DNA of 64,000 nt from Nitrosopumilus sp. (GTDB lineage Archaea; Thermoproteota; Nitrososphaeria; Nitrososphaerales; Nitrosopumilaceae). Location of the stretch: NCBI GenBank assembly GCA_963667665.2, contig OY763927.2, positions 768,001 through 832,000 on the forward strand, given 5' to 3'. A program made the translations under genes and the position numbers. The notes under the pieces are model-generated. The model searched no databases. It worked only from the letters and a program-made list of their open reading frames with translations, and had not been told where the DNA came from. This document shows, piece by piece, positions 9,754-55,802 of the stretch; position 1 is the stretch's first letter, and each line of letters opens with the position of its first letter.

Positions 9754-10433
9754 ATGGAGTTTACTCAAAATGAAGACCCAACTGTTGAAAAACCAATTAT
9801 TTTTGCAGCAATGCAAGACATGGGAAACGTTGGAAGTATTGTAATAAATTTTATCAATGATTCTTTGAGAACAAAAACATTCAGAATTGCAAAAAATCCA
9901 TATCCAACATATGTAGTTGATAGAGGGGATATATTGAACTTCCAAATGAGAGTTGGGAATACAAGTATACAGATGACATGATAGTATTTGGGGGAGGAAA
10001 AGGACAGCCAAAAAGTAATAGTGAGATAAACGCTTTGTGTCAGGATGTAATTGATGTTGCAAAAAAATATTCTGCAAAGTTCATCTATACGTTTGGAGGT
10101 TTTCACACTAACAGATTTTTAGATAATAATCCCAAAACATTCATCACTACAACATCTATTGAACTTACAAAACAAATGGAAGGGCTCAATGTAGAGATAA
10201 CTCCTCAAAAATCAATAATTACAGGATTCAACGGATTGATTCTAGGATTTGCAAAGAAAAATGGAATTCATGGAATTGGAATGTATGGAGAATTAAATGA
10301 ACCAGAGTTTCCACAGTATAGAGCAGCAATTAGCATAATCAAAATCCTTGAAAAATTAACTTACAGAAAGTTGGGAGATACAAGCCAGTTAGAAGCAATG
10401 GCACAAGATATTGAAAGAAAATTCAAGAATTGA
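9754..10433 (+). pseudogene. PAC2 (proteasome assembly chaperone) family gene, frameshifted at GGGG 9925-9928
   Basis: ORFs 9736..9981 and 9978..10433 join as DRG-GYIELPNESWEYKY; either a real lesion or an assembly indel. Confidence 0.75.
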
Positions 10434-17752: not shown

Positions 17753-18214
17753 ATGACAAAAACTGTAAAAAAATCATCACATACAGGCTCTGTGAAAAAA
17801 ATAATTGTGATTAAAGCATCAAAAGATAAAGTTTGGAGAAAGATTAGCAATATTTCAGGATTGCCAACTTGGGTAGTTGATGTAAAAAAGACAGTTTATC
17901 TTTCTAAAAAGAAAAAGGGCATCGGGGCAATCAGGTTAATTACGTTTGCAGATGGAAGTAAAATAGAAGAACATGTTGTAGCATGGAAAGATAAAGAGTA
18001 TTTTACATATATTGCAACTGAAGGCTTGCCATTAAGGGCATATGTTGCAACAATTTCAATTAAAGTGAAATCAAAAAATCTGATTCAATTAACATGGCAA
18101 TCTTATCTCAACAGTAAAAAGATGTCTGAAAAACAATTCTTGGAGTTTCTTGCATTTATGGGTTCATTTTATGAAGCATCACTTGAAAATCTCAAAGCAT
18201 CACTTGGAAAATAA
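17753..18214 (+). CDS. SRPBCC/polyketide cyclase family protein
   Basis: DKVW..I...LP.W and GAIR...F pattern. Confidence 0.8.
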   Translation: MTKTVKKSSHTGSVKKIIVIKASKDKVWRKISNISGLPTWVVDVKKTVYLSKKKKGIGAIRLITFADGSKIEEHVVAWKDKEYFTYIATEGLPLRAYVATISIKVKSKNLIQLTWQSYLNSKKMSEKQFLEFLAFMGSFYEASLENLKASLGK

Positions 18215-18267
18215 TACTAAAAGATTTTCAAGCTAAAATGTAAATATGATAAATCGAGGAAAAAAAC

Positions 18268-18603
18268 ATGAGCGATATGCGATTTATTATGATTGGTGTT
18301 GTTTTAGTCTTTGGAGGATTTATTATTCTTGGGGTATTTGGACATAATTATCAAGCAGCTACACTAGAATCAAATGAGTTTGGAACATGTTACAAGTATT
18401 CTACAGATAATGCACCAGTTGAAATTGACTGTTCGTTTAAGATAATTGATCAGACACTATTCTTTACATTGATTATTGGATTTTTGGGGGCTGGAATCAC
18501 TGCTTTAGTTAAAGGAGTAAAAGGGAATTGGGACAACAAGGTAAAACCAGAAGATATGGTAGGTCCAGATAGAAAAGACAACGAAGATTCTGATAATGGT
18601 TAA
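18268..18603 (+). CDS. Two-TM membrane protein
   Basis: Two hydrophobic helices. Confidence 0.65.
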   Translation: MSDMRFIMIGVVLVFGGFIILGVFGHNYQAATLESNEFGTCYKYSTDNAPVEIDCSFKIIDQTLFFTLIIGFLGAGITALVKGVKGNWDNKVKPEDMVGPDRKDNEDSDNG

Positions 18604-18784
18604 AGAAACGAGATTAAGAGGATCTTTTAGATTTTAGTTTTTCATAATCTTCAGGATTGTCTTCTTCCAATCTTTGAAAATATACTTCATCATATGGCAT
18701 TTTTATCAACATCTTATTGTAAAATTTGCAAAGCTAATGTTTTCAGTAAAATGATTTTAGAAAAGATAATGTTTTGTGCCTAAA

Positions 18785-22291: not shown

Positions 22292-22933
22292 TACACGCGG
22301 TGCTAGAAGAGATCCCGGATGTACATAGTCGTCACACGATGATGATAATGATACAGAATGATCTGTTCAGTGTGCAGATGTTTTGTGTATGCTGATTACT
22401 GCTGTATGATTGCAGGGTCTACAGGTATGATCCGCGGAGGGCGACATGGCCCGTTTTGATTTTTGAGGGCACCTTGCATGTATCCGAACAGTTTGACTAT
22501 GGGCACCTCCCCACTGTGCAACAGCTGCCTGATCCTCTTTTGCAGCTCATCTAACCCCCCCCCCCAAAAAAAAAAAAATATGTCTGCAACTGCGCGCCTT
22601 ATCTTGCTCCATTGTATCTCAGTTGGATTGTGCTGCAGGGTACTGGGAGGCAGAAACCACAAGACGACATCTTGGTGCTTTTGATATATTCGTCCATCTG
22701 TTTGCCGGTGTGGGCTGCCGCGTTGTCAAGTATTACGAACACTCTGCCATACCTGTATCTGAGATACTCCAAAAATGCAATTACGCTCTGGGCATCCGTC
22801 TTTTGATGGAACTGCATATCAAACGTACCCTGTCCCAGCGCCCCTATGATCTTTATGCTCTTTTTTGAAAAATTAATCTGGACCGTGTCCTTTCCGCCTT
22901 TTACACGTATGCCTCGCATCGATGAGGGCGCAT
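22292..22933 (-). mobile_element. IS630-family transposase remnant (5' truncated, frameshifted)
   Basis: VILDNAAAH, LPP...NPTEIQW; GC-richer than flanks. Confidence 0.85.
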
Positions 22934-22959
22934 CCACGGGGATTATAAGGTTTTTAGTG
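22933..22959 (+). repeat. 27-bp direct repeat, copy 1 (tccacggggattataaggtttttagtg)
   Basis: Identical to 23965-23991. Confidence 0.92.
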
Positions 22960-23085
22960 GTTGTTTGAGACCCAAAAAATTTCTAGATTTTGGGTTTTCA
23001 TAATCTCAATAACCATTTTGGGGATGAAAAGGGACGCAGATGAGTATAGAAATTGATTTTAAACATATGTTTAGGATGAAATTCC

Positions 23086-23892
23086 TTGACGAAAAAGAAA
23101 ATCATCATCAGCATATTTGTTGGAATTATTGCAATATTGGGATTAGACGCCTTTGTAATCGAACCCAACATGATCGAAGTTAATGAAATTAATATCTCAA
23201 ATACTGGAACTACAATGAAAATTGGTTTTATTTCTGATTTTCAAAGACAAAATTCTGATCCTGTATTTGTTCAACGTGTTGTAGATATACTAAATGCACA
23301 AGATCTTGATACAGTAATTATTGCAGGTGATTTTATAGATAGAAGTTTAGGTGAATTACCTTCACTGGATCCATTAGGGGAATTAGAAACAAGAAGTGGA
23401 GTATATGGTGTTTTAGGAAATCATGATTATAATGTATATTCTTTGAATCGTAATAATGCTAATTTTGAACTTGCAGAAACTGTAATAGAATATCTTGAAT
23501 CCAATGGTCCAATAGAAATTCTTAGAAATGAGAATGTTGTAATTAATGATGTTGTAATAATCGGTCTTGATTCTTACTGGGCAGGTTTAAGAGATTTAGA
23601 TAAAGCTTTTACAAATACTTCAAATGATTTCAAAATTTTATTTGCACATAATCAAAATGATTTAGAAATTAACAAAGAAATTGCAGATGTGTATTTATTT
23701 GGACACACTCATTGTGGACAAGTTAGACTTCCATATGTTGAATCCATACCAAAAATATTTGGATTTGAAGGGGATTATGACTATAGACATTATATTGTAA
23801 ATGATGCAGATGTCTATACAACATGTGGTTTAACTCCTGCACCAAGATTTTTCAATCCTCCAGAAATTACAATCATAAATTTGTTGGAATAA
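23086..23892 (+). CDS. Membrane-anchored metallophosphoesterase (YkuE-like)
   Basis: SD, GDF, GNHD and GHTH motifs. Confidence 0.88.
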   Translation: MTKKKIIISIFVGIIAILGLDAFVIEPNMIEVNEINISNTGTTMKIGFISDFQRQNSDPVFVQRVVDILNAQDLDTVIIAGDFIDRSLGELPSLDPLGELETRSGVYGVLGNHDYNVYSLNRNNANFELAETVIEYLESNGPIEILRNENVVINDVVIIGLDSYWAGLRDLDKAFTNTSNDFKILFAHNQNDLEINKEIADVYLFGHTHCGQVRLPYVESIPKIFGFEGDYDYRHYIVNDADVYTTCGLTPAPRFFNPPEITIINLLE

Positions 23893-23964: not shown

Positions 23965-23991
23965 TCCACGGGGATTATAAGGTTTTTAGTG
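23965..23991 (+). repeat. 27-bp direct repeat, copy 2
   Basis: Identical to 22933-22959. Confidence 0.92.
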
Positions 23992-24139
23992 ACTATTTTG
24001 GCACGGTATAAAAATATCAAATACTCTCAATGAACACTTCAAAAGTACCTCTGTTAAGGCATAATCATGTCATTTAAGAGATACAGTTTAACAATTCATT
24101 TAGTTTTACATGGTTTGTAATTGTCACAGTCAAAAATAT

Positions 24140-24754
24140 TTAGTCTATTTTATTCCAATTTAATTTTTCAGCAGTTTCAAGTAAAACACAAGCTAATTTT
24201 CCATTAGGTCTTTCAGCTAATAGCTGCAATTCATTTTTGCATTTGATTTCTTTGATATGAACATTGTTTTCTATTTGTATTTTTAAAGACAATCTAATTA
24301 TTTCAATTTCATTACAATCATTTACAATCTGTGTCACCGTTCTACCAGCAGCCATAGATCCTGAAATAATTTCTATTGCATCAGAATTTCTAACAGGAAT
24401 TACCAAATTATAAAAACAATCTGATTCGGATTGTTTAATTTCTAATCCAGAATGTCCATTAGATTGTTTAGCATGCAAACTAAAACCAAAATCCAAGTTG
24501 GTAGTTCTAGGCATTTCTTTTGGAATTTGTATATGAATAGTGTCAGTGATCACTTTATCAAATACAATTGTTCCTGTTGGTAAAACCCCATTACCCCAAC
24601 TAAGTTTGATATCAGCTACGTTTGAACTGTTTGTGGTTATTGTAAATCCATCTACATCAAAAGATTTTGTTTCTTCAGCATATGCTATAGGAATTAATGT
24701 CACAATTGCTAAAAGAGAAATTATTATTTTATTCATGATTATTTTTTTCATCAT
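24140..24754 (-). CDS. Secreted protein with thaumarchaeal C-terminal module (LK.Q...I.C...G..ACV...AEKL.W)
   Basis: Signal peptide and recognisable Cys-pair module. Confidence 0.7.
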   Translation of the reverse strand: MMKKIIMNKIIISLLAIVTLIPIAYAEETKSFDVDGFTITTNSSNVADIKLSWGNGVLPTGTIVFDKVITDTIHIQIPKEMPRTTNLDFGFSLHAKQSNGHSGLEIKQSESDCFYNLVIPVRNSDAIEIISGSMAAGRTVTQIVNDCNEIEIIRLSLKIQIENNVHIKEIKCKNELQLLAERPNGKLACVLLETAEKLNWNKID

Positions 24755-24794: not shown

Positions 24795-24930
24795 TTAGAA
24801 GCCCCATGTAAGACCACTAAGATAGGTTGTGAATTTATCAGCTTTGACATAAACAGATCCAGTTGAATCATCAGGGTTTTTAGCTACCATAAATCCAAGT
24901 AATTCAGAACCACTTGAATTGAATACGGGA
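24795..24930 (-). pseudogene. C-terminal fragment of a secreted, possibly trypsin-like protein
   Basis: PVFNSSGSELLGFMVA...LTWGF; N-terminal part replaced by the cupin fragment. Confidence 0.35.
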
Positions 24931-25298
24931 ATACGCCAAACGACAATTGGGCAATCATTTGAGTATCCTTCTAATCCTCCAAACATTGATGTTCATTTTA
25001 TTGAGATCTTACCTGGTGCAGAAAGTGGTTGGCATACTCATGACACGCCCTTGGTTGTAACTATTCTACATGGTGAGATTACAATTCATTATTGTAACGA
25101 AGAAATAGAAAATTCTGCAGATAAAGAACAATGTAATGATAAAGGAATTGTCAGAAATTTTCAAGCAGGGGATTCATTTGTTGAGGCAATCAATATAGAA
25201 CATAATGGAGTAAATGATGGAGTGATTCCTGTAAAATGCATGTAATTACGTTGAATCCAGATGAAAACTGGGAAGATATCTATTCTCCAGAGGATTAA
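24930..25298 (+). pseudogene. Cupin-domain gene fragment (5' truncated, frameshift near 25237)
   Basis: PGAESGWHTH, AGD.FVE and H.G.N motifs. Confidence 0.75.
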
Positions 25299-25342
25299 TG
25301 AATGACTAAGATTAAGTGGTTATTTTAGGTACAAAATCATGC

Positions 25343-25545
25343 CAAGTTTTGATTGTAATTAACAAAAATTAGCAATAGAGTTAATGCTAGAATCTTAAAA
25401 TTATCATTGCAATTTCTTAACACTGATTAGCACGTAATGTTTTGCTAGGAATTGATTTTAGTACTTTTTTGTGCGTAACTTTTTTCGTTCCTAGTGCGTA
25501 ATAATTAGAGGTTAGAAATGCTAAATTCTATCAAATTATGCTAAT
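25343..25545 (+). repeat. ~200-bp intergenic repeat, copy A
   Basis: 25436-25485 identical to 26548-26597; TAGCA-N10-TGCTA twice. Confidence 0.9.
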
Positions 25546-25555
25546 GTTATTAATA

Positions 25556-26386
25556 TTACATCAAAATTTCACAGATTTCAATCCATCCACTTTGTTGATC
25601 AAATAGTGCATTTTGAAAGGTTCTTTCTTTTTCCATTGCTTTCATTTCATAATGAGTAAATAATTTTGCATTGATCTTTTTTAGATGTATCTTAATATCT
25701 TCAACATCATATCTTGTAATAGAAGATAGATTAGCATCACGTGAAATTAGATTAAATGGATACTCTGCTATTTCAAGCCATTCATTTGGAATTCTGTTTG
25801 CAGGAAGTAAATACTCTAAAACAACATGATTGTTTTGGTTTTCTGATTTAAACTCACCAATAATTCTCCATAGTTGATCTTCTGACAAATAGTAAGACAA
25901 GCCTTCAATAATTATTAGCGAGGGCATGTTCTTATTCCATCCATGTTTTATCAGATTTGGAATTATTTTATTTGATTCTGACAGATTGAGATCAATACAT
26001 GAAATAGAATCTACAAGTGATAAATGTACATCACGAATCAAATCTCTTTTTACATCCATGTTTTTAGCATCAATTTCAAAAACTCTGTATTTTTTTGAAT
26101 GTGAACATATTTCCAAGGATAATGCATCAAGACCAGCACCAAGAATTACTATCTGTTCAATCTTGTTTTCTAAGATATTATTTTTGGTTAAATCAAGTAT
26201 GCATGATTTTCTGTTCTTGAGAATTTCTGGATAATGTGGCCAAAGTTTTTTGCATTGTTCTAAAATTTCTCGTCCAGAATCTAAATTTAACATGCTAAGA
26301 AATTTCTGAGCAAAATGACTTGTATGAATTTCTCCATTTGTCCACAAAAGAACCAATGCAGAGGTGGAAGAAAGATCTGTCTTCAT
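25556..26386 (-). CDS. Class I SAM methyltransferase (LCM-like)
   Basis: QIVILGAGLD, FEID and EGLSYYL motifs. Confidence 0.85.
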   Translation of the reverse strand: MKTDLSSTSALVLLWTNGEIHTSHFAQKFLSMLNLDSGREILEQCKKLWPHYPEILKNRKSCILDLTKNNILENKIEQIVILGAGLDALSLEICSHSKKYRVFEIDAKNMDVKRDLIRDVHLSLVDSISCIDLNLSESNKIIPNLIKHGWNKNMPSLIIIEGLSYYLSEDQLWRIIGEFKSENQNNHVVLEYLLPANRIPNEWLEIAEYPFNLISRDANLSSITRYDVEDIKIHLKKINAKLFTHYEMKAMEKERTFQNALFDQQSGWIEICEILM

Positions 26387-26464
26387 TCTTGTAAATTACC
26401 TAGTTTAATTCTTAAATTTTTGTTCATATTCATTCTATTTTTAGAATCATGTAATTAATGGTCA

Positions 26465-26650
26465 TAATTTAACAAAAAATTAGCAATAGAGTTAATGCTA
26501 TAATCTTAAAAATCATCATTACAATATTCTAGCACAGACTTACGCACAATGTTTTGCTAGGAATTGATTTTAGTACTTTTTTGTGCGTAACTTTTTTGTT
26601 TTGTTATACGTAAAAAATAAGGTAATGTGTTAGAATCTAGCAGTATTCTA
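26465..26650 (+). repeat. ~200-bp intergenic repeat, copy B
   Basis: Colinear with copy A. Confidence 0.9.
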
Positions 26651-26679
26651 TTATTTTTATAATATGTAATTAAAAAAAT

Positions 26680-28905
26680 CTAACTTAATTCAATTATGTC
26701 CCTTGCTAATGAATCATGATATTCTATTTGTATTACCATGAATCCTTTGAGAATATGTTTTGGTATTTCAATATTGATGTTACCGTATTTGTCATCATAT
26801 GACATTTGCTCATACATTCTTTTACCATCTTGATCAAAAATTGTTAAAAATATAGGTTCACGATATTCTACAAGTTTTGCAATCTTGCCAGTTATTTTTA
26901 CTGTACTATTAATTGCAGATGCATCTATGACAATTTCCGGTGATTGTATAGAGAGATATAATTTTATATTGTTTTTGAATTGTTGAATTGATTCTGTAGC
27001 AGATTGGATTTTTCCACCAGTGAGATCTTGTTTGATTTTATTTATGAGTAATTGAATTTTCCACAATTGTTTTTCAGAACCAGAATTAGTAAATTTCTTT
27101 ACAAAACTTTCTAGACTTTCAAACGTATTTGCTATTTCCATTATTGCAATCTCATCTGAATTAAAGATCATGCTTTGAAGATCATCATCTTGAATTGATA
27201 TTATCTGTGATTCTTTGGCAGAGCCATGATGTATTTCTGCAATATATAATCCAGATTTTATATCACTGTTCCACAAAATTTGAAAGTCACCATATTTTGT
27301 AGTACGTGAATTAAGTTCTACAATTTCATTATTCTGATTAAAAAGATAAAATGAAACCTTATCCCTTGAATTCAAAGAATGTTTGTATACTGCACCTTTG
27401 ATAGTTAGCAGGTTTGAATCAGAGTCATAGAGTATATCCATCATTATTCTGGGATCATGTGGTAAAAACTTCTGACTTGCAAAATCAATAATTTTGTAGA
27501 TTTTTTTATGACCTACCTCAAAATTCCCGTACAGGATGGATGCTTTAGATTCCCGTATTGATTTATGATATTTCTGATAATCTACAGAAGTATGGTTAAT
27601 GTTTAAACTACTCACCAATGTATCTATTTGTGAAATTTGGTTCAGATAGATCTGCTTTTTTTGTGCAGTTGAAATATCGTGTTGCTTGTAAATGGGCGTG
27701 TAATTTCTTATCTCAGGATAAAATCGCTCAAAGTTAATCCATTCCTGTTCTACTGCATCAAGTAATTGTTGTGCATACCTGAAATCATTTAATTCCAAGG
27801 CATTTTTAATGTTAGATACTCGCTTCAGAGTATTTTTTATTTTTGATTCAAATTCTGGCATTTTCTCTAAATGAGATTTGTCGTTTGCTTTATTTTGTAA
27901 TTGAATTACTTTTTGTTCCATCTGATTCTTGTTATCAAGATACAAGCTATATTCTTTGAGATCTGATTTTATCTTTAAATAATTCTGACTTATATTATGT
28001 AAAATTGCCTTTGACTGTACATCATTATCAAACGGATTTGAATTTTTTTCTATCTTTTTTACCATGTTCAAATTTTTGATGTTTTGTTCTATGAGCATAA
28101 GATCTTGAATATTTTCTTGTTTCTTAGCATCATTTTTGAGTGTTGTAATTTTTACTTCCCATTTTGATATTATTTTATCATCTATTTTACCTACTTTTCC
28201 ATGATACTTTGTTGCAATTTTTGTCATATCTGTTATGGATTGAGATTGTGACATTTCCTTTTTGAAATTATCCCATACTGATTTTACATGTGGATCAATT
28301 ATTATGAATACTGGAGAATGTGTATTTTCATTAATTCTTGAATTGTATTTTATTATTTTTCCCATGTTCTCAACATCTGTTTGAAATGATAAGACATCAT
28401 CAACTGTTTTTGATTCTTTTATTTTTGCATGTATTGGTTCCCATATGTAATGCAGGTATATTTTTGAATCCAGAATTTCATTATATCTTAGCATCTGTTT
28501 AATTTTGTTTGAAGAAATCAATATGTCAATTGATTGTTCTAGATATTTTATCTCATTTTGATATGTTGTGATCTGTTTCATTGTTTCTACCTGTCTCAGT
28601 GATGCCCTAAGATCTCTTAATGAATCAATTATTTCTGGATAGTTTTTTTGTTGGTAAATTTCTTCTAATCCATCAATAGAATTTAAGATATTTTTGACTG
28701 TGTATTGTTGTAATTGTGAAGTTGCATTCCAATTACCTTCTACGTCTGCTTTGAATTTATCTTTTAGAATTAGACTCAAAGAATCAATTTGTTCCAACAT
28801 TGCTACATATTGACTTGCATCTGTTGCATAGACGACATTAACTGGGATAAGAGTAACAAATCCAATTAAAAATATTATGATAATAGTAGATTTAGTATAT
28901 CTCAT
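26680..28905 (-). CDS. Large secreted helical protein with two C-terminal beta modules
   Basis: Signal peptide; 741-aa ORF. Confidence 0.7.
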   Translation of the reverse strand: MRYTKSTIIIIFLIGFVTLIPVNVVYATDASQYVAMLEQIDSLSLILKDKFKADVEGNWNATSQLQQYTVKNILNSIDGLEEIYQQKNYPEIIDSLRDLRASLRQVETMKQITTYQNEIKYLEQSIDILISSNKIKQMLRYNEILDSKIYLHYIWEPIHAKIKESKTVDDVLSFQTDVENMGKIIKYNSRINENTHSPVFIIIDPHVKSVWDNFKKEMSQSQSITDMTKIATKYHGKVGKIDDKIISKWEVKITTLKNDAKKQENIQDLMLIEQNIKNLNMVKKIEKNSNPFDNDVQSKAILHNISQNYLKIKSDLKEYSLYLDNKNQMEQKVIQLQNKANDKSHLEKMPEFESKIKNTLKRVSNIKNALELNDFRYAQQLLDAVEQEWINFERFYPEIRNYTPIYKQHDISTAQKKQIYLNQISQIDTLVSSLNINHTSVDYQKYHKSIRESKASILYGNFEVGHKKIYKIIDFASQKFLPHDPRIMMDILYDSDSNLLTIKGAVYKHSLNSRDKVSFYLFNQNNEIVELNSRTTKYGDFQILWNSDIKSGLYIAEIHHGSAKESQIISIQDDDLQSMIFNSDEIAIMEIANTFESLESFVKKFTNSGSEKQLWKIQLLINKIKQDLTGGKIQSATESIQQFKNNIKLYLSIQSPEIVIDASAINSTVKITGKIAKLVEYREPIFLTIFDQDGKRMYEQMSYDDKYGNINIEIPKHILKGFMVIQIEYHDSLARDIIELS

Positions 28906-29140
28906 TTCATGTTTCTAATAGAATGTAAAAACATACAACTTAACGATTACGTAGAAATGATACGGAATGGTTATAACTTTTGATACAAATTTTACAACAT
29001 CTTTAACATCATAACACTCATCATAATGAGTTTTTGTTAAATAATTTATCATGCAAGTAATTTTAATCGCTCGTCACGACATTAAGAGATATCTATAACG
29101 TAGTTGCTTTTTTTCATTATGTCGTGACAAACTTTTCTTA

Positions 29141-29200
29141 TTTCAATTGCAATTAACAAAAGTTAGAATTAATGCTAGAATCATTGAGAACATTTTTCTA
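29141..29200 (+). repeat. Partial, degenerate copy C of the intergenic repeat
   Basis: caattaacaaaa...ttaatgctagaatc matches the start of copy A. Confidence 0.65.
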
Positions 29201-29254
29201 ATTATGTTTAATTACAGTTTGGTTAATATTTCGAAAGATTTGATTTCAGCATAG

Positions 29255-30055
29255 ATGACTACAGTGGACAATACTGCAATAATTTGGTCTGTTGTGATAG
29301 TTATCATTGCTGTAGGATTTACAACTCTAGGCAACACGGCAGAGCAGATTGAATCCAAAATTGTCACACCTACTCCATTTAATGTAAAACTTGATGTTGT
29401 AGAACCATCAATATCATCACAAATAACCGTAAAAACAGGCAAGGAGACATATCTCAAAAATGACAAAATCAAAGTTTCAGGTTTGGTAGATCCTGTATTG
29501 CCTGAGATTCAAGTGACCATGGTGGTTATTTCTCCAGAGGGTAATCTTATTGCAATTGCACAAACGGAACTTGATGATAACAAACAATTTTCTGAAACAA
29601 TTCTTACGAGTGGAGTATTATGGACTAGTGAAGGAGAATACTCTATAGAAATAATTTATGGAAAAACAAACACGGCTCAGATAACTTTTGAGTTTATCAT
29701 GCCAGTTGTTTCTGATTTAGTTGTAGAAAAAGTTGAAATTGAGAATTATGATTTACACTATGATATCACAAGTGGAATGGTTCATGACATTACGCTAGAT
29801 GATAATTGTAACTGCATGAATATAATTATTGATGCACAAGATAACGATGGTGTGTTAGCGTTATACCTGCCAAGAGGATTGATAGATGCAAAAATGAGTA
29901 ATGGTGAAGATGATATGTTTTTTATCTTGATGGATGGCGTTGAAATAGCTTATCAAGAAATTGACAGTACGGATTCAAACCGCACAATTGTAATAAAATT
30001 TGAACAAGGAACATCAGATATAGAAGTCATTGGAATTGATCCAAATTGGAGATAG
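29255..30055 (+). CDS. Thaumarchaeal surface protein of the PEFG-CTERM-associated family, lacking the sorting tail
   Basis: LPRGLIDA...DD.FFIL.DG.E...IEVIG motif. Confidence 0.75.
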   Translation: MTTVDNTAIIWSVVIVIIAVGFTTLGNTAEQIESKIVTPTPFNVKLDVVEPSISSQITVKTGKETYLKNDKIKVSGLVDPVLPEIQVTMVVISPEGNLIAIAQTELDDNKQFSETILTSGVLWTSEGEYSIEIIYGKTNTAQITFEFIMPVVSDLVVEKVEIENYDLHYDITSGMVHDITLDDNCNCMNIIIDAQDNDGVLALYLPRGLIDAKMSNGEDDMFFILMDGVEIAYQEIDSTDSNRTIVIKFEQGTSDIEVIGIDPNWR

Positions 30056-30060
30056 ATGGT

Positions 30061-30280
30061 GTTACCAGAATTTTGTCAAGTTTTAATTACAATTAGCAAA
30101 AAATTAGCAGTCAGACTTAATGCTAGAGTCTTGGAAAAAGTCTAGCAAAATTATAGCACTCAATTACTCGACAACAAAGTGCTACAAACAATTTTAGCAT
30201 TAATTTGTGTGTAATTTTTTTTGTTTCTAGTGCGTAAAAAACAGAGGGTGCAAGTAGGATTCTGTCAAGATATGTCTTGT
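30061..30280 (+). repeat. ~200-bp intergenic repeat, copy D (more diverged)
   Basis: caagtttt..., aaaattagca...ttaatgctag and ctagtgcgtaa shared with copy A. Confidence 0.85.
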
Positions 30281-30296
30281 AATACTAGGTGATTCT

Positions 30297-32338
30297 AGAA
30301 GGAAGGAGTATGCTATACTCCAGAATACATAACAAATTACATTTGTTTGAATACAATTATTCCTCATTTATCCAAATCAAATGCAACATCCATATCAGAA
30401 CTAATCAAAGAGTATGAAAATAACGTCGACGAACTAGAAAAAAAATTTAAAGAAATGAAAATTTTAGATCCAGCTTGTGGTAGTGGAGCATTTTTAGTAA
30501 AAGCAATCGACATATTACTTGAAATTCATAAAGAAATTCAAGATATAAAAGGAAAAAGTGAAAAACATTCAGAAAAACAGTTACAAATTACGCATGAATG
30601 GGATGAAAATAAAGAAGTCAGAGCAATTATTGAAAATAACATCTACGGGGTAGATATTAATCCAGAATCAATAGATATTACAAAATTAAGCTTATTTCTA
30701 AAATTAGCTTCTAACGAAAGAAAGCTGATTGGATTATCTAACAATATCAAAGTTGGGAATAGTCTAGTAGACGATAATACAATCGATTCACATGGTTTTC
30801 TTTATGATAAAGAATTTCCAGAGGTAATGGAACTTGGCAAATTTGATATTATAATTGGAAATCCTCCATACATCAGAGTACAAAGAATCAAACATGAAAT
30901 AATTGATTTTCTTTTAGAAAAATATGAGTGTGCACACAAAAAATTTGATATTTCATTAATGTTTTTTGAAAAAAGTCTAGAATTGATAAATGAAGATGGA
31001 TTAATAGGCTTCATCTCATCATCACAATGGCTTAACACAGATTATGGTGAAAAATTACGTGAGATGTTGTCAAAAGGTTTGATAAAAGAGATCATAGATT
31101 TTGGAAGTTTACCAATTTTTGAAGATGCTTCTACATATCCAGCCATATTCATTCTAAGTAAAGATATTCAGAAGAGATTACAATACAAAAAAATTAAAGA
31201 TCAATCAAAACTTTCCTTAGAAGGAATAACATCATCAAAAGGCATCCCAATGCAATATTCAAAATTTGGGAAAAAATCATGGTCATTTAATGAATTTGAT
31301 TTAATTTCTCACTTAGAAAAAAATAAAATAAATTGGAATTTACTCTCAACTCATGGTAATTTCTATTATGGAACAATTTCGGGTCAAGATGAAGTATTCA
31401 TTGTCAGTATTGACATAGTTCAAGCAAACAATCTGGAACAAAAATTTCTTTTTCCGTATGCATATCAAGGAAGAGAAGTTAAGAAATTTCTAAAAACAAT
31501 TCCATCCGAAATGATTATCTATCCATACAAATCAGATTCAGATGGAAAGGCAATTTTGATGAAAGAGGATGAATTGAAGTCCAAAGCGCCTAACATTCAC
31601 AATTATTTACTCAAACACAAACCAAAGTTACTTGAAAGAAAAGATTCTCGAAAATTTTATGCAAAAGGAGAGAATTGGTTTAAACTTGTTAGACAAGGAA
31701 ATTTTAACTTAATCTATCCAAAAAAACTTTTGATAAAAGGCATAGAAAAAGAATCAGTTGTAGGCTTTTTATCAGAAAATACTGCTTTTAGTGGGGCAAA
31801 TTCACCTGCATTCATACTTGAAAATGAGAAATATGACTGGAAGGTGTTCTTGTGCATTTTAAATTCAACATTAATTTCACAATATCTACAATCAATTTGT
31901 CCTGCAAAATTACACGGATTCTTTAGATTTAACACAAACAGTCTCAACACAATTCCAATACCTGAATATATTAACAAATCCGAGATTCAGGAATTGGAGA
32001 AAACAGCTCAAGAAATAATAGACATAACATCAAAATTCCATTTAAAACAAAGAAAATTCTTTAATAGAGTGTTAGACAATTTTGAATTAGAACAAATTCC
32101 ACAAAAGATTAACAAAATAATAAATATAGATTTTAAAATATTCTTAAACACAATAACAAAAAGTACTAAGAAAAAACTTTCACTAAAAGAACAAGAAGAA
32201 TGGGAAGAATATTTTGAAGATTGTAGAAATGAATTAATAAAATTTGAAGAAAGCATTCGAAAAGACAAATTAAATATAGATGAAATTGTTTTTAGAATTT
32301 ATCATATTTCTAATATCCAAAAAAATATTAAAAAATAA
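30297..32338 (+). pseudogene. Type IIG (Eco57I-like) restriction-modification gene, N-terminal nuclease part missing
   Basis: EGVCYTPEYIT, DPACGSGAFL, GNPPY and TaqI-C-like TRD. Confidence 0.85.
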
Positions 32339-32672: not shown

Positions 32673-33953
32673 TCAAACCAAAGTGGAATTGCAAAATTGA
32701 AGAATCTGCTTGTGAGACTCGTCTGCAGCTAAACGACCCTTTTCATACTGAGAACGACGTGCCTCTAAACCGTATTCCAAATTATCTATTCTGTCATGCA
32801 AGTTTTGAATCACTTCATCTTTTTGCTCTAGTTTTTCAATGTCTTCTTGCTTTTCAGCAGCTTCCAGTCTAAGTCTTTCCTCATCAGATATTGTAAGAAA
32901 AGGAATTGCCTTTTGGTATTTGGGGAATCGCTCAAAATCTTCTTCTTGGTATCGCTCATATGCTTGCTCTAATCCTACCTTGTGACCCATCATGTCTTCT
33001 TTGTCCAGATAGTTTACCTTTGCACGCCTCATCATTGTATTGAAATATTTTCTGAATCCGTGATCTAGTTTTACCTCGTATCGTCTCTGGTTTTTCTTTA
33101 TTTCATCGCGTAATCCAATTTTTGTTACAATCTTGTCCACTCTGGAACGTACACCTTTTGATTGTAGACGTACTGGTACATCAAATCGAGTTGATGCAAT
33201 TAGTGGATCATCATTGGTTGGATACTTTAGGAATCTTGATTTCCATTCTTCTTTGTATAATGTTAATGCATAACATGCTTCAGGAGTTATGAATGTCCAG
33301 TACTCTTCTGGATCTCCTCTGTACACTCTTAGTGCAGCTCCTGTGTATTGTTGAGTTTTATCTTTGAAAAATATTACATCTTTCCAACAAAAATAATCCC
33401 ATGACTCTAATCGAAATCCAGCTGATGAGAACATTAGAATTATTACCTTGTCTGTAATGTCGGTACAACACTCAATCATCTTGTGAATTTCTTCTCTGGT
33501 GTATGCACGGTCTTCGCTTTTTGTTCTACGTGGTAACATCTTGTTGATTAGTTTCCAAGATACATCAACTTCATTTGCAGATAGTAATGCCTTGATTGGT
33601 TTTAGTCTGTTTGATACTGTGTTTGGAGAGATTTGATTAGAGTTTACTTCTTGTTTTACTTCTCTAACATATGATTTTAGAATAGATTTTGTTACAGTGA
33701 TATCTTTTCTTGCCAAGTCAATAAATAATTGAGACATTTCTTTTACATCCCTTGACTGGGGTTTTTCCCCCAAATATTGCTCAAAAATATAATCTGGAAC
33801 CATATTCAAGAATCGTGTCAGATTTCTGGTATATCCTCGTCGGGTCTCATCACTTCTGATTGATTCTACAAAGTTCGTATATGCGTCATTTTCTGTTATA
33901 TCCAATTCTATCTTCATGTATTTTCTTGTAGTACTTGGGTCTATTTCAGTCAC
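32673..33953 (-). CDS. Tyrosine recombinase/integrase
   Basis: GFR, HGFRK, MGH and Tyr catalytic set intact; tail probably continues in another frame to 32495. Confidence 0.92.
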   Translation of the reverse strand: MTEIDPSTTRKYMKIELDITENDAYTNFVESIRSDETRRGYTRNLTRFLNMVPDYIFEQYLGEKPQSRDVKEMSQLFIDLARKDITVTKSILKSYVREVKQEVNSNQISPNTVSNRLKPIKALLSANEVDVSWKLINKMLPRRTKSEDRAYTREEIHKMIECCTDITDKVIILMFSSAGFRLESWDYFCWKDVIFFKDKTQQYTGAALRVYRGDPEEYWTFITPEACYALTLYKEEWKSRFLKYPTNDDPLIASTRFDVPVRLQSKGVRSRVDKIVTKIGLRDEIKKNQRRYEVKLDHGFRKYFNTMMRRAKVNYLDKEDMMGHKVGLEQAYERYQEEDFERFPKYQKAIPFLTISDEERLRLEAAEKQEDIEKLEQKDEVIQNLHDRIDNLEYGLEARRSQYEKGRLAADESHKQILQFCNSTLV

Positions 33954-33962
33954 TAAAAGGGA

Positions 33963-34795
33963 ATGGGCCCACTAGGGTACCAAGCAAGCATCGGCTCAAC
34001 TGATGCAGGTAGTCCATTTTATTCCCCACTATGGAGAATACAGACTGCAACTTGGGATAACCCATCTATGGCAACTATGATAAAAGATACCAAGGGCATA
34101 ACCAAAGTTTCATCAAATGGTAGTTTAGAAACAGGTCTCGCAGGCTTTGTAGTTAATTGCCCATTTGTAGAAATGCCTGATGCCATGATGATGATGGATA
34201 ACATGATGATGGATAACATGATGGAAGATACCATGATGATGGATAACATGATGGAAGATACCATGATGATGGATAACATGATGGAAGATACCATGATGAT
34301 GGACGACATGATGATGGATAAAGACATGATGATGGACGACGACATGATGATGATGGACGATGACATGATGATGGATGATACCATGATGGACGATTCTATG
34401 ATGGATGACGACATGATGATGATGGATGACATGATGATGTCAGCAGATATGACAGGAAAACTAACTGCTCCAAAAGGTGAAATGCCATTTGGCGGTAAAA
34501 CAACTGGCTCATATTCCATCCAAGTAGATGGCAGTGGACACACCAACATAACCACACACATGAAAAGCATGTCACCAAACATGGTCCTTGAAGGCTGGTT
34601 AGTGGATACGGATACAGGTTACAAGCTAAGTCTTGGTAAATCCCATGACGATCGTAAATTAGCATTTGCACAAGCAGTGGTAAATCCTTGGATTTATGAC
34701 GCAATTGTAATGACTGAGGAACCAATTGGGGATACAGATCCTAGACCAACGTACCTGTAGGCGGAGTAAAACTAGATGTTCCATTTGGACACTAG
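33963..34795 (+). pseudogene. 5'-truncated paralogue of 4326..5726 with Met/Asp-rich linker and extra C-terminal domain
   Basis: GPLGYQ..YSPLWR..W...VVNCPF; frameshift near 34748. Confidence 0.75.
34183..34440. repeat. Degenerate atg/gat-rich coding tandem repeat including ~3 copies of a 30-bp unit
   Basis: atggaagataccatgatgatggataacatg. Confidence 0.9.
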
Positions 34796-35683: not shown

Positions 35684-37212
35684 TATAGCAATGCGCATAA
35701 GTTTCTGTACATGATATTTTAGGACCATCATAGGCATAATGCCTCTTGTCTGGGGAATACACCAAAAGCACAAAACAAAATGCATGGAAAATTAAAATTC
35801 AGATTCATGTATGGCTATACATATCACATTGGAAAAAAATGCAGGCACCAACATGATACATACAGAAGATCAAACTATTCGTACAATCATTGTTTTTGTG
35901 CAGGTTTAGACGATACCTGGTGTGATACAATGTCGGGATTTGGCGGATCATCCATCTTTATGAATGGCCGCATGATTCCTTTGGGCGGTTTTCTCTTCCA
36001 GAATTTCTTAAAATTATAATCAAACTTGTGTACCCTGATAAATTCATACACTGCTGCCAGATGTGCATCCTTGTCTGCATAACGTATGGAATGATTCATT
36101 ACACGTTTGAGTACGCTCCATACTTCCTCTACGGGATTCAGATATGGATGTCCGATAGGATACCACAGGACAATAATGTCGCGCTCTGCAAAGAATCTTT
36201 TCGTCTCCTTGGATATATGCCACGGTGCCTTGTCTAGTATCAGGACCATCTTGCCTACCTCCATGTACACCTTGTCCATATGTTCTAGAAAGGAAGCGGT
36301 ATTGACAGTCTGACAGTGATTAAAAAACTGTCTGCCGTCTTGTGTCATGCTGCATATCATTGAGAATCTATGAAATCCTCCGCTCCATAACATGAATATG
36401 CGTAGGCACAGTTTTGCCCAATATTTTGCAGACATTGCAGCGTCCTTAAAGTGTGATTCATCTTGTGTTACAATTGTATATCGCATCTTTGTGTATCTTG
36501 CAATCTTTTGATACAGGCTGGCTCTCCATTTGTTCACCTCTTCTATTGGTGTTCTACTAACCATGATTGGCTGTGTCTTTTTTCTAGAGTATCCCCACTG
36601 TCTGGCATATCGCCTTATCTGCGAGATGCCAAGGTTTTTTCCAGACATCTCTTCTAGTGTCGTGCAGTTCTACGGGTGTAAATGCGCGTTTCTCGCACCA
36701 ATGCCTTGCTTTGTTTAGAATTTTTCTGTCTATCTTGGGTGGACGTCCTGACCGTGGTTTGTCTGAGAGGGCCTGCCATATTCCATGAAATGATTTTGCA
36801 GCACATGCAAACCTGCAATGTTACATGGCAACAGTACGACGATCACAACAAGATATTTTGGCAGTATTGACAAATGTTTTGATTACCATAAATGCCAACA
36901 GCATGGATAACCGACGTGATATACAGCCTACATGTTCTACTTTTTGCACTTGTTTTAGCATTTTATGTCCATGCATGTGTACATTTAGTGAAACAAATTT
37001 TTGACTTTTCCTATTTAGTAACAGTACGGTTAAATTGACGTTCGTGTGAAATGCCAAGATAGTTCTAGTTTACAAATTTGTGTGAAAAAAATACGTTGAA
37101 GGTATACAGATGCTGTTCGGAATGCAGGAGACGATGATTTACAAAGATGTGATGATCAAGGGACGACGATGCCCAGAAATTGGCTGTACAGAAACTTATG
37201 CGCATTGCTATA
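35684..37212 (-). mobile_element. IS630-family element, copy 1 (1529 bp including flanking TA)
   Basis: 28-bp TIR tatagcaatgcgcataagtttctgtaca; DES, LDKAPWH and LNPVEEVW motifs. Confidence 0.95.
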
Positions 37213-37386
37213 GGCCATAGGGCATTTATTGCAGGCAAGCATGGTGCTGTAATTCACATGATAGATCATAAAACAGGCCAAATAGTGAAAAAGGCTTTTG
37301 CCAAAGGTGCTGTTGTAAATGTAATTGGTGGTGTAGTTAGTTTTCTTGAACATCAAGTGTTAGGTGGACTGTTGAGCGAATTATAA
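37213..37386 (+). pseudogene. Small paralogue 1 (5' end cut by IS)
   Basis: FIAGKHGA...D.KTG..V.KAF.KG. Confidence 0.7.
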
Positions 37387-39777: not shown

Positions 39778-39805
39778 GTTATTATTAAACACAATAATAT
39801 TCCAC

Positions 39806-41334
39806 TATAGCAATGCGCATAAGTTTCTGTACAGCCAATTTCTGGGCATCGTCGTCCCTTGATCATCACATCTTTGTAAATCATCGTCTCCTGCATTCCG
39901 AACAGCATCTGTATACCTTCAACGTATTTTTTTCACACAAATTTGTAAACTAGAACTATCTTGGCATTTCACACGAACGTCAATTTAACCGTACTGTTAC
40001 TAAATAGGAAAAGTCAAAAATTTGTTTCACTAAATGTACACATGCATGGACATAAAATGCTAAAACAAGTGCAAAAAGTAGAACATGTAGGCTGTATATC
40101 ACGTCGGTTATCCATGCTGTTGGCATTTATGGTAATCAAAACATTTGTCAATACTGCCAAAATATCTTGTTGTGATCGTCGTACTGTTGCCATGTAACAT
40201 TACAGGTTTGCATGTGCTGCAAAATCATTTCATGGAATATGGCAGGCCCTCTCAGACAAACCACGGTCAGGACGTCCACCCAAGATAGACAGAAAAATTC
40301 TAAACAAAGCAAGGCATTGGTGCGAGGAACGCGCATTTACACCCGTAGAACTGCACGACACTAGAAGAGATGTCTGGAAAAAACCTTGGCATCTCGCAGA
40401 TAAGGCGATATGCCAGACAGTGGGGATACTCTAGAAAAAAGACACAGCCAATCATGGTTAGTAGAACACCAATAGAAGAGGTGAACAAATGGAGGGCCAG
40501 CCTGTATCAAAAGATTGCAAGATACACAAAGATGCGATATACAATTGTAACACAAGATGAATCACACTTTAAGGACGCTGCAATGTCTGCAAAATATTGG
40601 GCAAAACTGTGCCTACGCATATTCATGTTATGGAGCGGAGGATTTCATAGATTCTCAATGATATGCAGCATGACACAAGACGGCAGACAGTTTTTTAATC
40701 ACTGTCAGACTGTCAATACCGCTTCCTTTCTAGAACATATGGACAAGGTGTACATGGAGGTAGGCAAGATGGTCCTGATACTAGACAAGGCACCGTGGCA
40801 TATATCCCAGGAGACGAAAAGATTCTTTGCAGAGCGCGACATTATTGTCCTGTGGTATCCTATCGGACATCCATATCTGAATCCCGTAGAGGAAGTATGG
40901 AGCGTACTCAAACGTGTAATGAATCATTCCATACGTTATGCAGACAAGGATGCACATCTGGCAGCAGTGTATGAATTTATCAGGGTACACAAGTTTGATT
41001 ATAATTTTAAGAAATTCTGGAAGAGAAAACCGCCCAAAGGAATCATGCGGCCATTCATAAAGATGGATGATCCGCCAAATCCCGACATTGTATCACACCA
41101 GGTATCGTCTAAACCTGCACAAAAACAATGATTGTACGAATAGTTTGATCTTCTGTATGTATCATGTTGGTGCCTGCATTTTTTTCCAATGTGATATGTA
41201 TAGCCATACATGAATCTGAATTTTAATTTTCCATGCATTTTGTTTTGTGCTTTTGGTGTATTCCCCAGACAAGAGGCATTATGCCTATGATGGTCCTAAA
41301 ATATCATGTACAGAAACTTATGCGCATTGCTATA
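39806..41334 (+). mobile_element. IS630-family element, copy 2 (inverted, near-identical to copy 1)
   Basis: Same TIRs and length; only a few substitutions. Confidence 0.95.
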
Positions 41335-41432
41335 TATCAAAAAAATTATGTGCATCAGCTTGTAAAATTATGCGCAAAAAACTTGTTTGAGGGTACATTT
41401 TCAACTTCTGACATGTATAGGACGAGTTTTAG

Positions 41433-43075: not shown

Positions 43076-43562
43076 TTATTTGACATGATATTCCTCCCCT
43101 GTTTGCTTGTCAACTACGGTTTCTCCTCTAGGCGGCATCTTACGTATGAACGCATGTGCCGGAGTCTCGTTCTCCCCGTCTACACCAAGAGACATGTGCG
43201 GTCTCCTGTGGTTGTACCATTCCATAAACAGATCCACGGGATCACTCTTGCGCATCATGATTGCCTCAAACTCTGGCAGCTTACGCTGAATCTCGCCGTG
43301 CAGCCTCTCCAGCTTGCCGTTGGTTTGTGGATGTCTGACGCCTGCCAGGATCTGTTTTATTCCAAGCTCGACCAGCCTTTTCTCAAAGACCGATGCCCCC
43401 TTCTTCTTTGCCTCTGAGGCGTTGGCGTAGAACTGGGATCCTCTGTCAGTCATTATGGATGCAGGCTTACCGTGGTTTTTTATGGCCTCCTCAAGCACGG
43501 CCAACGCGTTTTCGGTAGTGGCGTGCTCAAACATGCTGTACCCGGTGACAAAACGTGATGCG
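43076..43562 (-). mobile_element. IS481-family (rve) transposase, 3' remnant
   Basis: ASRF, TDRGSQF, PQTNGKLER and YN.RRPH.SL motifs. Confidence 0.85.
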
Positions 43563-44982
43563 TAGTACCGGCCAGTAAGATCCGCTCACTTTGGCCGTCT
43601 GCGGCATCACGTCCGTCCAAACCGAAAGATTTTGATCGATCCTCCCATAACAAATACACATGAGGGCCTCAAACGGACGTGGATGGAGCAGGCCCGGTAC
43701 CCTGCCGACGGGCAATGATTTCCTGCCCGATACAGACGCACAGATCCTTCTGGAGATGATTGCAGCCTGCCCACCGGGGAAGGTAAGGGACATCCTGAGA
43801 GCATGCTACGAGAGGAAGATCAACGCGAGCATACGCAGGATATGGGATCTGCTGATGCGGCCGTACTCTACCGTGCGGGAGTGGCTTTGGAGGGTGCACG
43901 AGCGCGGACTGGACAACATATCTGACAGAAAGCCGCCGGGCGCAAGGGGCATACTGGGACCGGAGGAGATCGAGATTGTCAGGGAGACACTGCGCCAGCC
44001 ACCGACCGAACACGGATTCGAGCAAGGGGCATGGCTCCTGCGCATGATCGCAGAGGTCATCACAAAAAAGCTGAAAAAACATTGCAGGCCACGTACCATA
44101 CGGAGGCTCCTGCGTAGGATGGGATTCTCGTACGTAAAGCCTAGAACCGTTCCGCACAAGTCCGCCTCCAAAATGGAGCAGGAAGAGTTTATGCAGCAGT
44201 GCAAACAGCTGGTCAGTGAAAAGTCAGCAGAGGATTACACAATGCTGGCACAGGACGAGGCAGGCGTGCGGTTGGGAGCCTGCGGCGGGTACGGCTGGCG
44301 GTTCAAAGCCGACGGGTGCGAGGTCGGCGTCGGATTCTCCACCAAGGAGACAAGAATCATCGGAGCAGTTGGCCCTGACGCAGTCCACGTAAAGGTGGTT
44401 GAGAGCGTAAACGCCGACACCTTCATAGAGTTTCTCAAGGAAATGCGGCAGATATACAAAAAATTCGTCATGTTCCTTGACAATCTTTCTGCGCACAAGG
44501 CTGTCAAGGTGTCAGAGTACGTCGAGTCCGCTGGAGGAGACATTGTTTTGATGTACCTGCCCAAGTACACCCCGCAGCTTAACCCCATGGAGATCCAGTG
44601 GAATGTGCTCAAGAACATGCTTGCCCAGCGATGCTTTAAGAATGCCGAGGAACTTGCCAAGTCAATCCGGATTCTGGTAGATACCGGACAGCTCTTGCCG
44701 GTCAAGCAGATGGATTACATGATTCCGTAATCAGGATTTTTTGCACCGGCGTTCAAGATTATTTTTATGCACGTCAGTTGCCCACGCATTTTTTCACGCC
44801 GCACCTGATTCATGCGCGTCAGTTCCGCATGTTACTTGGATTTACACGACAGTTGCTCGCAGTCTCGTGCCTGCAACGCAGACAAAAGACATCAACTCCA
44901 CCTCACTTGGATTTGCACGACAGTTGCCAGGCCCAAAGTCAAGGACGCGTAAAAAGTGAGCGGATCTTACTGGCCGGTACTA
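43563..44982 (+). mobile_element. IS630-family element with intact-looking transposase
   Basis: 30-bp TIR tagtaccggccagtaagatccgctcacttt including TA ends. Confidence 0.95.
43660..44730 (+). CDS. IS630 transposase
   Basis: QDE, LDNLSAH and YTPQLNPME motifs; N-terminal HTH. Confidence 0.92.
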   Translation: MRASNGRGWSRPGTLPTGNDFLPDTDAQILLEMIAACPPGKVRDILRACYERKINASIRRIWDLLMRPYSTVREWLWRVHERGLDNISDRKPPGARGILGPEEIEIVRETLRQPPTEHGFEQGAWLLRMIAEVITKKLKKHCRPRTIRRLLRRMGFSYVKPRTVPHKSASKMEQEEFMQQCKQLVSEKSAEDYTMLAQDEAGVRLGACGGYGWRFKADGCEVGVGFSTKETRIIGAVGPDAVHVKVVESVNADTFIEFLKEMRQIYKKFVMFLDNLSAHKAVKVSEYVESAGGDIVLMYLPKYTPQLNPMEIQWNVLKNMLAQRCFKNAEELAKSIRILVDTGQLLPVKQMDYMIP

Positions 44983-54898: not shown

Positions 54899-55306
54899 TT
54901 GAAAGCTTCTAATTCTTCTTTTGTGCTGGATTCAAATATTTCTCACATAGATAGCCCATTTTTTCCCAATCGAAATTTACTCCTTCTTACAATTGCTGCA
55001 TCATATGCATATCAAAATTCCATAAACATTGTTTCTATAGGATTATTAGATAATATGATTTTTCCAGACCAAAATAAGGAGTTTGTAAGTAATGCTGAAA
55101 AAACCATATCAATAAGTCTTGGACAAGAAATTAAAATTCTCACACCGTTAATTGAATTAGATAAAAGAGAAGTGGTGGGTTTAGCAAAAAAACATAAAAT
55201 TCCATTAGAATTTACTTATTCTTGTTACTCAGGAAAATCACTACCATGTGGCAACTGTAAAGCATGTGTAGAAAGAAAGTTAGCTATGAATGAACCAGTT
55301 TTATAA
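54899..55306 (+). pseudogene. QueC-family gene, C-terminal half only
   Basis: PNRN, FPDQ, TYSCY and CGNCKAC motifs; SGGxDS loop absent. Confidence 0.85.
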
Positions 55307-55780: not shown

Positions 55781-55802
55781 TTGAGGTATATAGGCACTAA
55801 TC

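Follow-up and report, generated by a model that had tools for sequence, protein, structure and literature searches.

A 64,000-nt stretch of a Nitrosopumilus sp. chromosome (G000:C1:768001-832000, here called the window), taken from a 1.89-Mb genome of 34% G+C, has four consecutive intergenic spacers that carry copies, all in the same orientation, of one AT-rich, non-coding element. By sequence comparison the element derives from the 3' end of a PEFG-CTERM surface-protein gene, now pseudogenised: it comprises the last ~30 codons (PEFG motif, membrane anchor and basic tail) and ~150 nt of the AT-rich flank, with oligo-T runs, that followed them. A past role as a recombination junction is the best explanation of the array, and it fits the known re-use of sites at gene 3' ends, not a new cassette system. 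We tentatively read the copies, with confidence a little short of even, as junction sequences, since decayed, that arose when foreign DNA entered repeatedly at the tail of a PEFG gene; insertion of this kind, at a gene tail, is already known. Homology to gene tails, the register of copy D with its gene, co-orientation, confinement to a single locus, variable flanks and a nearby recombinase are established here. The copies are as follows.

25300-25555, + strand: copy A, tail-derived element between the cupin gene stop and the methyltransferase gene stop (nhmmer/cmsearch E 1e-62 to 1e-50)
~26423-26679, + strand: copy B, between the methyltransferase gene start and the 741-aa gene stop; an exact 50-mer in common with A
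29128-29254, + strand: copy C, partial and the most diverged; ends at the start codon of the 266-aa gene
30041-30298, + strand: copy D, whose first ~90 nt continue the 266-aa PEFG-family open reading frame (ORF) in frame; 3' end abuts a truncated restriction-modification (R-M) gene

Copies A, B and D are ~255 nt each; the left limit of A (25299/25300) is the point at which a foreign contig departs from the window sequence. In an nhmmer search, a profile built from these three gave exactly three matches in the 1.89-Mb genome (E 1.5e-62, 6.9e-57 and 1.1e-54), and BLAST of the genome returned the same three copies and copy C. With R1, a sequence-only model of A, B and D that was used for the genome scans, copy C (29134-29254) was matched at E 1.5e-4 with filters off, and C compared with A gave a z of 8.4 against shuffles. 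In a sensitive self-comparison A (25322-25582) aligned with B (26432-26694) at 75% identity, A with D over 212 nt at 69%, and C (29128-29249) with A at 66%. The exact 50-mer lies at 25436 in A and at 26548 in B. The block AGANTTAATGCTANANTC is found exactly four times in the window, once per copy, with a fifth match, having 2 mismatches, at 14723; shuffles averaged 0.43 matches and none of 100 reached five. Two blocks of the element are more strongly conserved than the remainder in every copy pairing. A preliminary description of this DNA had reported one co-oriented AT-rich element in the four spacers and an identical 50 bp in A and B. Both observations held, the homology being longer than first described, and the copies were found at one locus, not scattered over the genome.

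The 266-aa protein, whose gene runs into copy D, stops exactly where its paralogues go on into the PEFG-CTERM sorting signal. By tblastn, three paralogues ran past the stop of the 266-aa gene, in frame, to 30094-30130, recovering V-L-P-E-F, and in DNA alignment the gene differed from a paralogue by an 18-nt insert bearing an in-frame TAG just before the PEFG motif. Because of this read-through and the TAG-bearing insert, the first ~90 nt of copy D are taken to be the 266-aa gene's own degenerate tail. Further, a copy of the element in another genome (G352, described below) scored 21 against 15 functional tails, with shuffles at 13.2 +/- 1.6 and 0 of 100 reaching 21, and its alignment to those tails starts at the PEFG-motif codons. 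When the four-copy profile was run over 27.6 kb of paralogue loci, the best matches, at E 0.6 and 2, fell at tail positions but short of significance. Three things thus support an origin in a gene tail: copy D is in register on its gene, the G352 copy resembles functional tails, and all copies are homologous to one another. Since the paralogue stop lies near model position 95-100, the final ~120-160 nt, which carry two T6 runs, would be the former downstream flank. What was first described as a possible recombination or end sequence of a cassette system thus matches an ORF that has decayed, namely the part of a PEFG-CTERM gene that encodes the C-terminal sorting signal, with its 3' flank. A match of this sort was among the outcomes that the preliminary description had itself named as refuting its proposal.

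PEFG-CTERM genes are multi-copy in 200 of 201 family genomes, a tally that includes genomes flagged unpublished. At loci L053/L054 (G232, G202), tandem PEFG-CTERM genes have near-identical ~110-nt tail-coding segments every 930-1370 nt, which looks like concerted evolution of the sorting-signal end.

The preliminary description had also drawn attention to TAGCA-N10/11-TGCTA palindromes and to a 10-bp inverted pair in copy B. These are real features of the DNA: TAGCA-N10-TGCTA occurs three times in the genome, all within A and B, where ~1.3 are expected per spacing; copy D has the N11 form; and the inverted pair is present in copy B. The TAGCA dyads are not kept in the G352 copy, however, and the 10-bp stem is not kept in A, D or the G352 copy. 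Functional tails carry CTAGCAGTAGCA, encoding Leu-Ala-Val-Ala of the membrane-anchor helix, and other TAGCA-dense windows of the genome are coding; a TAGCA density that resembles binding sites is thus expected from anchor-helix codons. The "palindromes" are Leu/Val-Ala codons of the former membrane anchor, and, as a caution, short palindromes clustered in an AT-rich spacer may be the ghost of membrane-helix codons, not protein-binding sites. A genome-wide operator was ruled out by the confinement of the dyad to the copies. A structured RNA or attC-like hairpin was likewise ruled out: whole-copy DNA and RNA folds gave z scores of -0.4 to -2.9 with differing structures and no conserved or stable hairpin, sub-segment DNA folds gave +0.6 to -1.8 against shuffled controls, and the copies had no match in Rfam. 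Small ORFs within the copies were excluded by stops in all six frames and nothing conserved. No consistent inverted ends were found in the copies, and a BLAST comparison of the copies with the remaining window sequence returned nothing beyond short matches at chance level. An origin as an insertion sequence (IS) end was rejected, since the copies have only a 7-mer in common with the ends of the IS at 35.7 kb, the sole IS whose ends were read; no likeness to IS ends was found in the window.

To the left of the array lie two short sites, which we call module 0.

22933-22975, + strand: E1, module 0; left side abuts a 5'-truncated DDE_3 transposase fragment (nhmmer E 4.8e-13)
23965-24005, + strand: E2, module 0; downstream of the metallophosphoesterase gene (E 4.5e-12)

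E1 and E2 have an exact 27-mer in common, and the repeat pair 22933-22969/23965-24001 flanks the metallophosphoesterase gene. Past module 0 (for E1, beyond ~22975), the window sites are not significantly like the element or gene tails, and a profile search did not detect module 0 upstream of A, B or D. An extension of E1 and E2 by eye to full copies and native gene tails was withdrawn (shuffle p 0.1-0.99).

Among 150 other genomes of the genus, R1 had a single true match, at G352:C1:454708-454836 (E 6e-13); weaker matches elsewhere (E ~1e-3) were coding or unrelated. The G352 copy is preceded without a gap by a ~37-nt module 0 sequence. It lies in a different island, where synteny with relatives stops ~3.2 kb to the left, and a counterpart of its flanks was found in none of 29 relatives of G352. 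To its right are the stop of an Mrr-type nuclease gene, a gene of unknown function, an SNF2 helicase gene, a transposase gene and integrase fragments. These fragments are of the same subfamily as the window's integrase (54% identity), lie on the opposite strand ~8.8 kb downstream of the copy and have the same relative orientation as in the window. As the 2.6-Mb genome of G352 has three loci of this integrase subfamily, two of them with fragments only, the proximity is suggestive but weak. A PEFG gene was sought at the left border of the G352 island and there is none. By eye, a 7-nt direct repeat (8/9 with neighbouring bases) flanks the ~257-nt copy at positions 9962-9972 and 10228-10238 of locus L066; it could be a candidate target duplication or a short att core.

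The unit length is similar throughout (A ~256, D 258 and G352 ~257 nt, with limits set by us), and the A, B, D and G352 copies stop at about the same element position, after which come four different genes: the methyltransferase stop (A), the 741-aa gene stop (B), the truncated R-M gene (D) and the Mrr stop (G352). The G000 and G352 copies have the flank and departures from functional tails in common, though their islands differ, which points to a portable unit. Because of the equal length, the four different 3' genes and the features common to G000 and G352, we take it that a tail-plus-flank already degenerate was spread by copying or transport, and that it did not stay behind on four separate occasions. 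Copy D is in register on its gene, and A, B, C and the G352 copy are orphans with different genes on both sides.

R1 found no match in 150 family genomes of 27 genera, 9 of them of the window's genus, so that it is known from one other genome, G352, among about 290. None of the 150 genus and 150 family genomes carries the locus. Exact patterns for the two conserved blocks and module 0 gave 0 matches in public genome, viral and metagenome contig collections, and BLAST against phage and plasmid records gave none, although diverged relatives could escape both searches. Fourteen runs from six studies, sponge metagenomes included, contain at least 90% of the stretch's words, with no RNA data set listed for it, and the lineage appears host-associated. 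Contigs of four runs (X14-X17) were compared with the window; uncovered parts in X15, X16 and X17 were not counted as evidence. In X14, E1, E2, C and D are all spanned by colinear contigs, the only breaks being at A and B, inside the A/B 50-mer; a contig of X16 stays colinear with the window between 27533 and 33164, a span that takes in C and D. No repeat-to-repeat joint in these contigs had a shorter side above 21 nt, and the joints 23068>26477, 20344>33086 and 28360>30939, with sides of at most 21 nt, were treated as spurious. Joints between repeats were thus not well supported in any of these samples. Gene content beside the array does vary, because the X15 and X16 contigs differ from the window at 24931. 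The X15 contig departs from the window sequence there, and a very high-depth X16 contig (~3900) holds only 24931-25299, the cupin segment, 97% alike and with other flanks on both sides. This suggests that the cupin segment passed recently between the window archaeon and some far more abundant organism in the X16 sample. The variable junction at 24931 carries no element.

The genes around the copies, from left to right, are as follows.

22396-22937, - strand: DDE_3 (IS630-type) transposase fragment, GC-rich, without N-terminus (Pfam DDE_3 positions 21-103 of 146)
23086-23892, + strand: metallophosphoesterase gene (Pfam), 74% nt identity to G014
24140-24754, - strand: secreted WING-49 domain protein (NCBIfam)
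24919-25245, + strand: cupin gene (Pfam)
25556-26386, - strand: LCM-type S-adenosylmethionine methyltransferase, intact (Pfam, NCBIfam); homologues cover residues 4-274 of 276
26680-28905, - strand: 741-aa protein that has a hydrophobic segment at the N-terminus and is distantly paralogous to a ~990-aa family
29255-30055, + strand: PEFG-CTERM family gene (266 aa), disabled by the in-frame TAG within the 18-nt insert
30299-32338, + strand: type IIG R-M/PglX-like methyltransferase, without ~400 N-terminal residues
32673-33953, - strand: tyrosine recombinase that has R, HxxR and Y; a 5'-truncated DUF7482 gene adjoins its start

These assignments (Pfam, NCBIfam) agree with the earlier calls of a methyltransferase (here LCM-type), a 741-aa protein, a PEFG-family protein, a cupin, an R-M fragment and an integrase at 2.4 kb. 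The cupin gene had no match to solved structures. The LCM-type methyltransferase is sporadic, being present in 26 of 151 family genomes, the window genome counted. Homologues of the R-M protein are 1050-1100 aa long, with homology beginning at window position 30299. The G014 metallophosphoesterase gene sits in another context, without E1 or E2; compared with G014, the window's gene has lost the operon partner that preceded it, and the WING-49 gene points the other way, which are further rearrangements near E1 and E2.

The tyrosine recombinase, 2.4 kb downstream of copy D, is intact (426 aa), and its R, HxxR and Y align with those of XerA 4a8e. It scored 44.8 bits with the NCBIfam XerA/integron-integrase model, which has a cut-off of 220, and E 0.0019, below cut-off, with Pfam Phage_integrase; judged by these scores it is not IntI-like. 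The integrase is transcribed towards the array and is separated from copy D by the truncated R-M gene. Its linkage to copy D is not proven, because both integrase flanks are gene-truncation breakpoints. At one of these, the 5'-truncated DUF7482 gene (33933-34760) has Met/Asp-rich tandem repeats of 15-18 nt; a full DUF7482 paralogue at 4404-5225 is beside an 18-nt tandem repeat at 5274-5543. The DUF7482 fragment was ruled out as a displaced PEFG tail, being of a different family.

The array and the integrase lie in a larger variable region. The genes at 18000-18731 and 55489-56957 are within a few hundred bases of each other in at least 10 relatives of the genus. Because these flanking core genes adjoin, window positions ~18750-55500 (~37 kb) are regarded as an island, which would be a strain- or species-specific flexible one; no direct repeat longer than 12 nt was found at its borders. 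Among 15 ORFs tested from 19.7-46.8 kb, there were no phage-family matches but the integrase. The island has DDE_3 and rve fragments, a truncated QueC gene, a gene for a large PKD-repeat protein and many other truncated genes. The QueC fragment, at the island's right edge (54899-55306), covers profile positions 86-207 of 210 only. Two inverted copies (35684-37214 and 39805-41335) of a 1.53-kb IS630/DDE_3 IS with 28-bp inverted ends bracket 37.2-39.8 kb; over the whole genome this IS is represented by fragments and by at least five copies of nearly full length. Two transposase-bearing stretches (22300-22940 and 43540-44860) are GC-rich in this 34% G+C genome and are probably foreign DNA; a C9-A13 homopolymer junction lies at ~22557-22580.

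Integrative elements are known to mimic the 3' end of a host gene, and for this reason the portable tail-plus-flank can be read as insertion junctions. In the parts of PMC6563490 drawn on here, thaumarchaeal elements integrate in the 3'-distal portion of protein genes (14 of 68), where they provide another end for the gene, and arrays of integrated elements form in Thaumarchaeota by re-use of the site. How insertion took place here, through which enzyme and in what order, is our inference. An incoming circular DNA with a copy of the tail would cross over once with the resident tail, in a reaction made either by the neighbouring tyrosine recombinase or by homologous recombination. The crossover would duplicate the tail in direct orientation, with the cargo between the two copies, and re-use of the site would build a co-oriented array. 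Copy D would be the gene-side junction of a segment in which both the recombinase and the R-M fragment lie. The island would have been scrambled afterwards by IS activity and deletions, and the copies would have decayed. A model with left and right att arms and a crossover at the PEFG motif was dropped as unsupported speculation.

Several observations weigh against the reading of the copies as insertion junctions. When A, B, C and D were compared singly with functional tails at the DNA level, none was significant (p 0.12-0.52), and the PEFG-CTERM model (TIGR04296), which gave 47-49 bits for the paralogues, did not match the D read-through (stop as X) at E <= 1; the tail in copy D is a decayed relative, not a member, of the PEFG-CTERM domain family. 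The longest exact run is 11 nt between A and D and 14 nt between A and C, leaving no exact core in all copies, and no block is invariant across all five (A to D and the G352 copy). The sole gene body in register is near the right end of the array, so that there is no simple attL-element-attR order. Some island junctions are without the element, such as 24931 and the integrase/DUF7482 junction, no second tail copy was found past the integrase in a scan of the window, and no empty site was found for comparison. Related integrases gave no help: at 12 loci (11 genomes) there were no interspersed repeat arrays and no R1 match, a PEFG tail was within 10 kb at 0 of the 12, and R1 had no match in five genomes with integrases 51-71% identical to that of the window (G106 being closest, at 71%).

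The likeliest rival is a passive relic. On this explanation the copies are the homogenised tails of former tandem PEFG-CTERM paralogues, the bodies of which were lost or overwritten, and the tails had no role in recombination. PEFG genes are indeed multi-copy in nearly every family genome, and the spacings here, 1112 nt from A to B and ~930 nt from C to D, are in keeping with those of the tandem tails elsewhere; copy C runs up to the very start codon of the one PEFG gene that survives, just where the tail of a preceding paralogue would stop, and the island is rich in IS copies and truncated genes. We nevertheless think a relic rather unlikely, since no remnant of a PEFG body was found upstream of A, B or C (other tblastn matches were all E > 0.5), at least three replacements would be required, each sparing the tail, and the derived non-functional features and the flank are held in common with a copy at a different locus, in another species' island. 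The element might instead have been a non-autonomous mobile unit of ~257 nt, made from a gene tail and resembling a miniature inverted-repeat transposable element (MITE), with several nearby insertions and with recombination between copies joining unrelated gene fragments. Like MITEs, it is a discrete non-coding unit, of similar length in A, D and G352, with flanks that differ on both sides; D abuts a truncated R-M gene and E1 a truncated transposase gene, and the 7-nt repeat read by eye at G352 is a possible flanking duplication. Unlike MITEs, the unit has no terminal inverted repeats and no dispersed copies, being found at one locus per genome; here all copies are within 22.9-30.3 kb of the window, with those of the array co-oriented within 5 kb. 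There is no evident partner transposase, the IS at 35.7 kb sharing only the 7-mer with the element, and we regard this explanation as improbable.

The preliminary description had proposed an integron-like cassette system, and its account of the layout stood, in that sharp-ended, co-oriented units separate unrelated genes of either orientation with a recombinase nearby; its interpretation was supported only in part, the repeats being a decayed gene tail. In its strongest form the proposal would be an active, integron-analogous platform in which a non-IntI tyrosine recombinase captures and reshuffles single-gene cassettes at sites derived from the sorting-signal end of a surface-protein gene, in a slowly turning-over array. 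The recombinase 2.4 kb past D, the single unrelated genes between co-oriented units, the unit 3' ends directly at ORF ends and the departure of the X15 contig at 24931, whereby gene content beside the array differs between samples, would all suit such a platform. The copies, however, have diverged to 66-75% overall and have no conserved structure; cargo orientation is mixed; the junction that varies is without the element; the X14 and X16 contigs are colinear across the copies they bridge, with putative joints of at most 21 nt; and no such array was seen near related integrases. We judge an active platform very improbable. Integrons with bacterial-type attC do exist in some archaeal metagenome-assembled genomes, and, in the portion of PMC9668308 consulted, they likewise have co-oriented sites, alike within a genome, that separate mostly single genes beside a tyrosine recombinase. 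The array here differs in its non-IntI recombinase, in lacking the hairpin-forming attC architecture and any attI that could be found, in having cargo genes on both strands and in a repeat drawn from coding sequence. It is not an integron: integrase, site structure and cassette orientation all fail. Neither, with no stable hairpin, a non-IntI integrase and 12 related loci without an array, did the copies prove to be the recombination sites of a cassette-accretion system. A shared regulatory module (operator, promoter or terminator) travelling with genes might be suspected from the two better-conserved blocks, the dyad motifs and the oligo-T runs. It is hardly probable at all, given that copies are found in convergent, divergent and tandem spacers alike, that the dyads are absent from the G352 copy and explained by anchor-helix codons, that TAGCA-N10-TGCTA is nowhere else in the genome, and that a putative TATA-like AT-rich stretch, seen by eye, lies between copy B and the methyltransferase start codon.

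The known systems nearest to it are the arrays built by re-use of a site at a gene 3' end, with PEFG-CTERM an unreported target family. As those arrays are described in the parts of PMC6563490 drawn on here, the likeness lies in direct repeats of a gene 3' end, one of which is in register and supplies a new gene end, in a nearby tyrosine recombinase and in unrelated DNA between co-oriented copies. The differences are that the repeats here are ~255 nt at 66-89% identity, whereas the cores there are short and exact (median 17 bp), and that PEFG-CTERM genes are not among the targets named in those parts. Further, the single-gene segments here are without their own integrase, and no clean attL/attR pair or empty site is definable. 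The tandem PEFG-CTERM (TIGR04296) arrays of Nitrosopumilaceae are alike in spacing and in that the 5' third of the element aligns with the sorting-signal tail; they differ in that here a single gene body is left and the tails, which no longer function, have unrelated genes between them. In T4-type phages, single variable genes are bordered by PeSL, mobile regulatory cassettes that recur between genes as promoter/stem-loop units and may favour shuffling through recombination. The element differs from these in being a decayed gene tail in an archaeal chromosome, in surroundings where, among the 15 ORFs tested, the integrase gave the only phage-family match.

If the copies are insertion junctions, ammonia-oxidising archaea have, or once had, a landing site for foreign DNA in the conserved tail of their PEFG-CTERM genes, which are very abundant. 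PEFG tails would then be comparable to tRNA gene ends elsewhere, and their use would help explain how flexible islands grow in small genomes. As a separate observation, locus L058 (G291:C1:~30.8-31.2 kb) has more than 15 copies of the motifs CTTGACAG / CTGTCAAG, in both orientations, within ~400 nt, a cluster that looks like an iteron or origin-like array.

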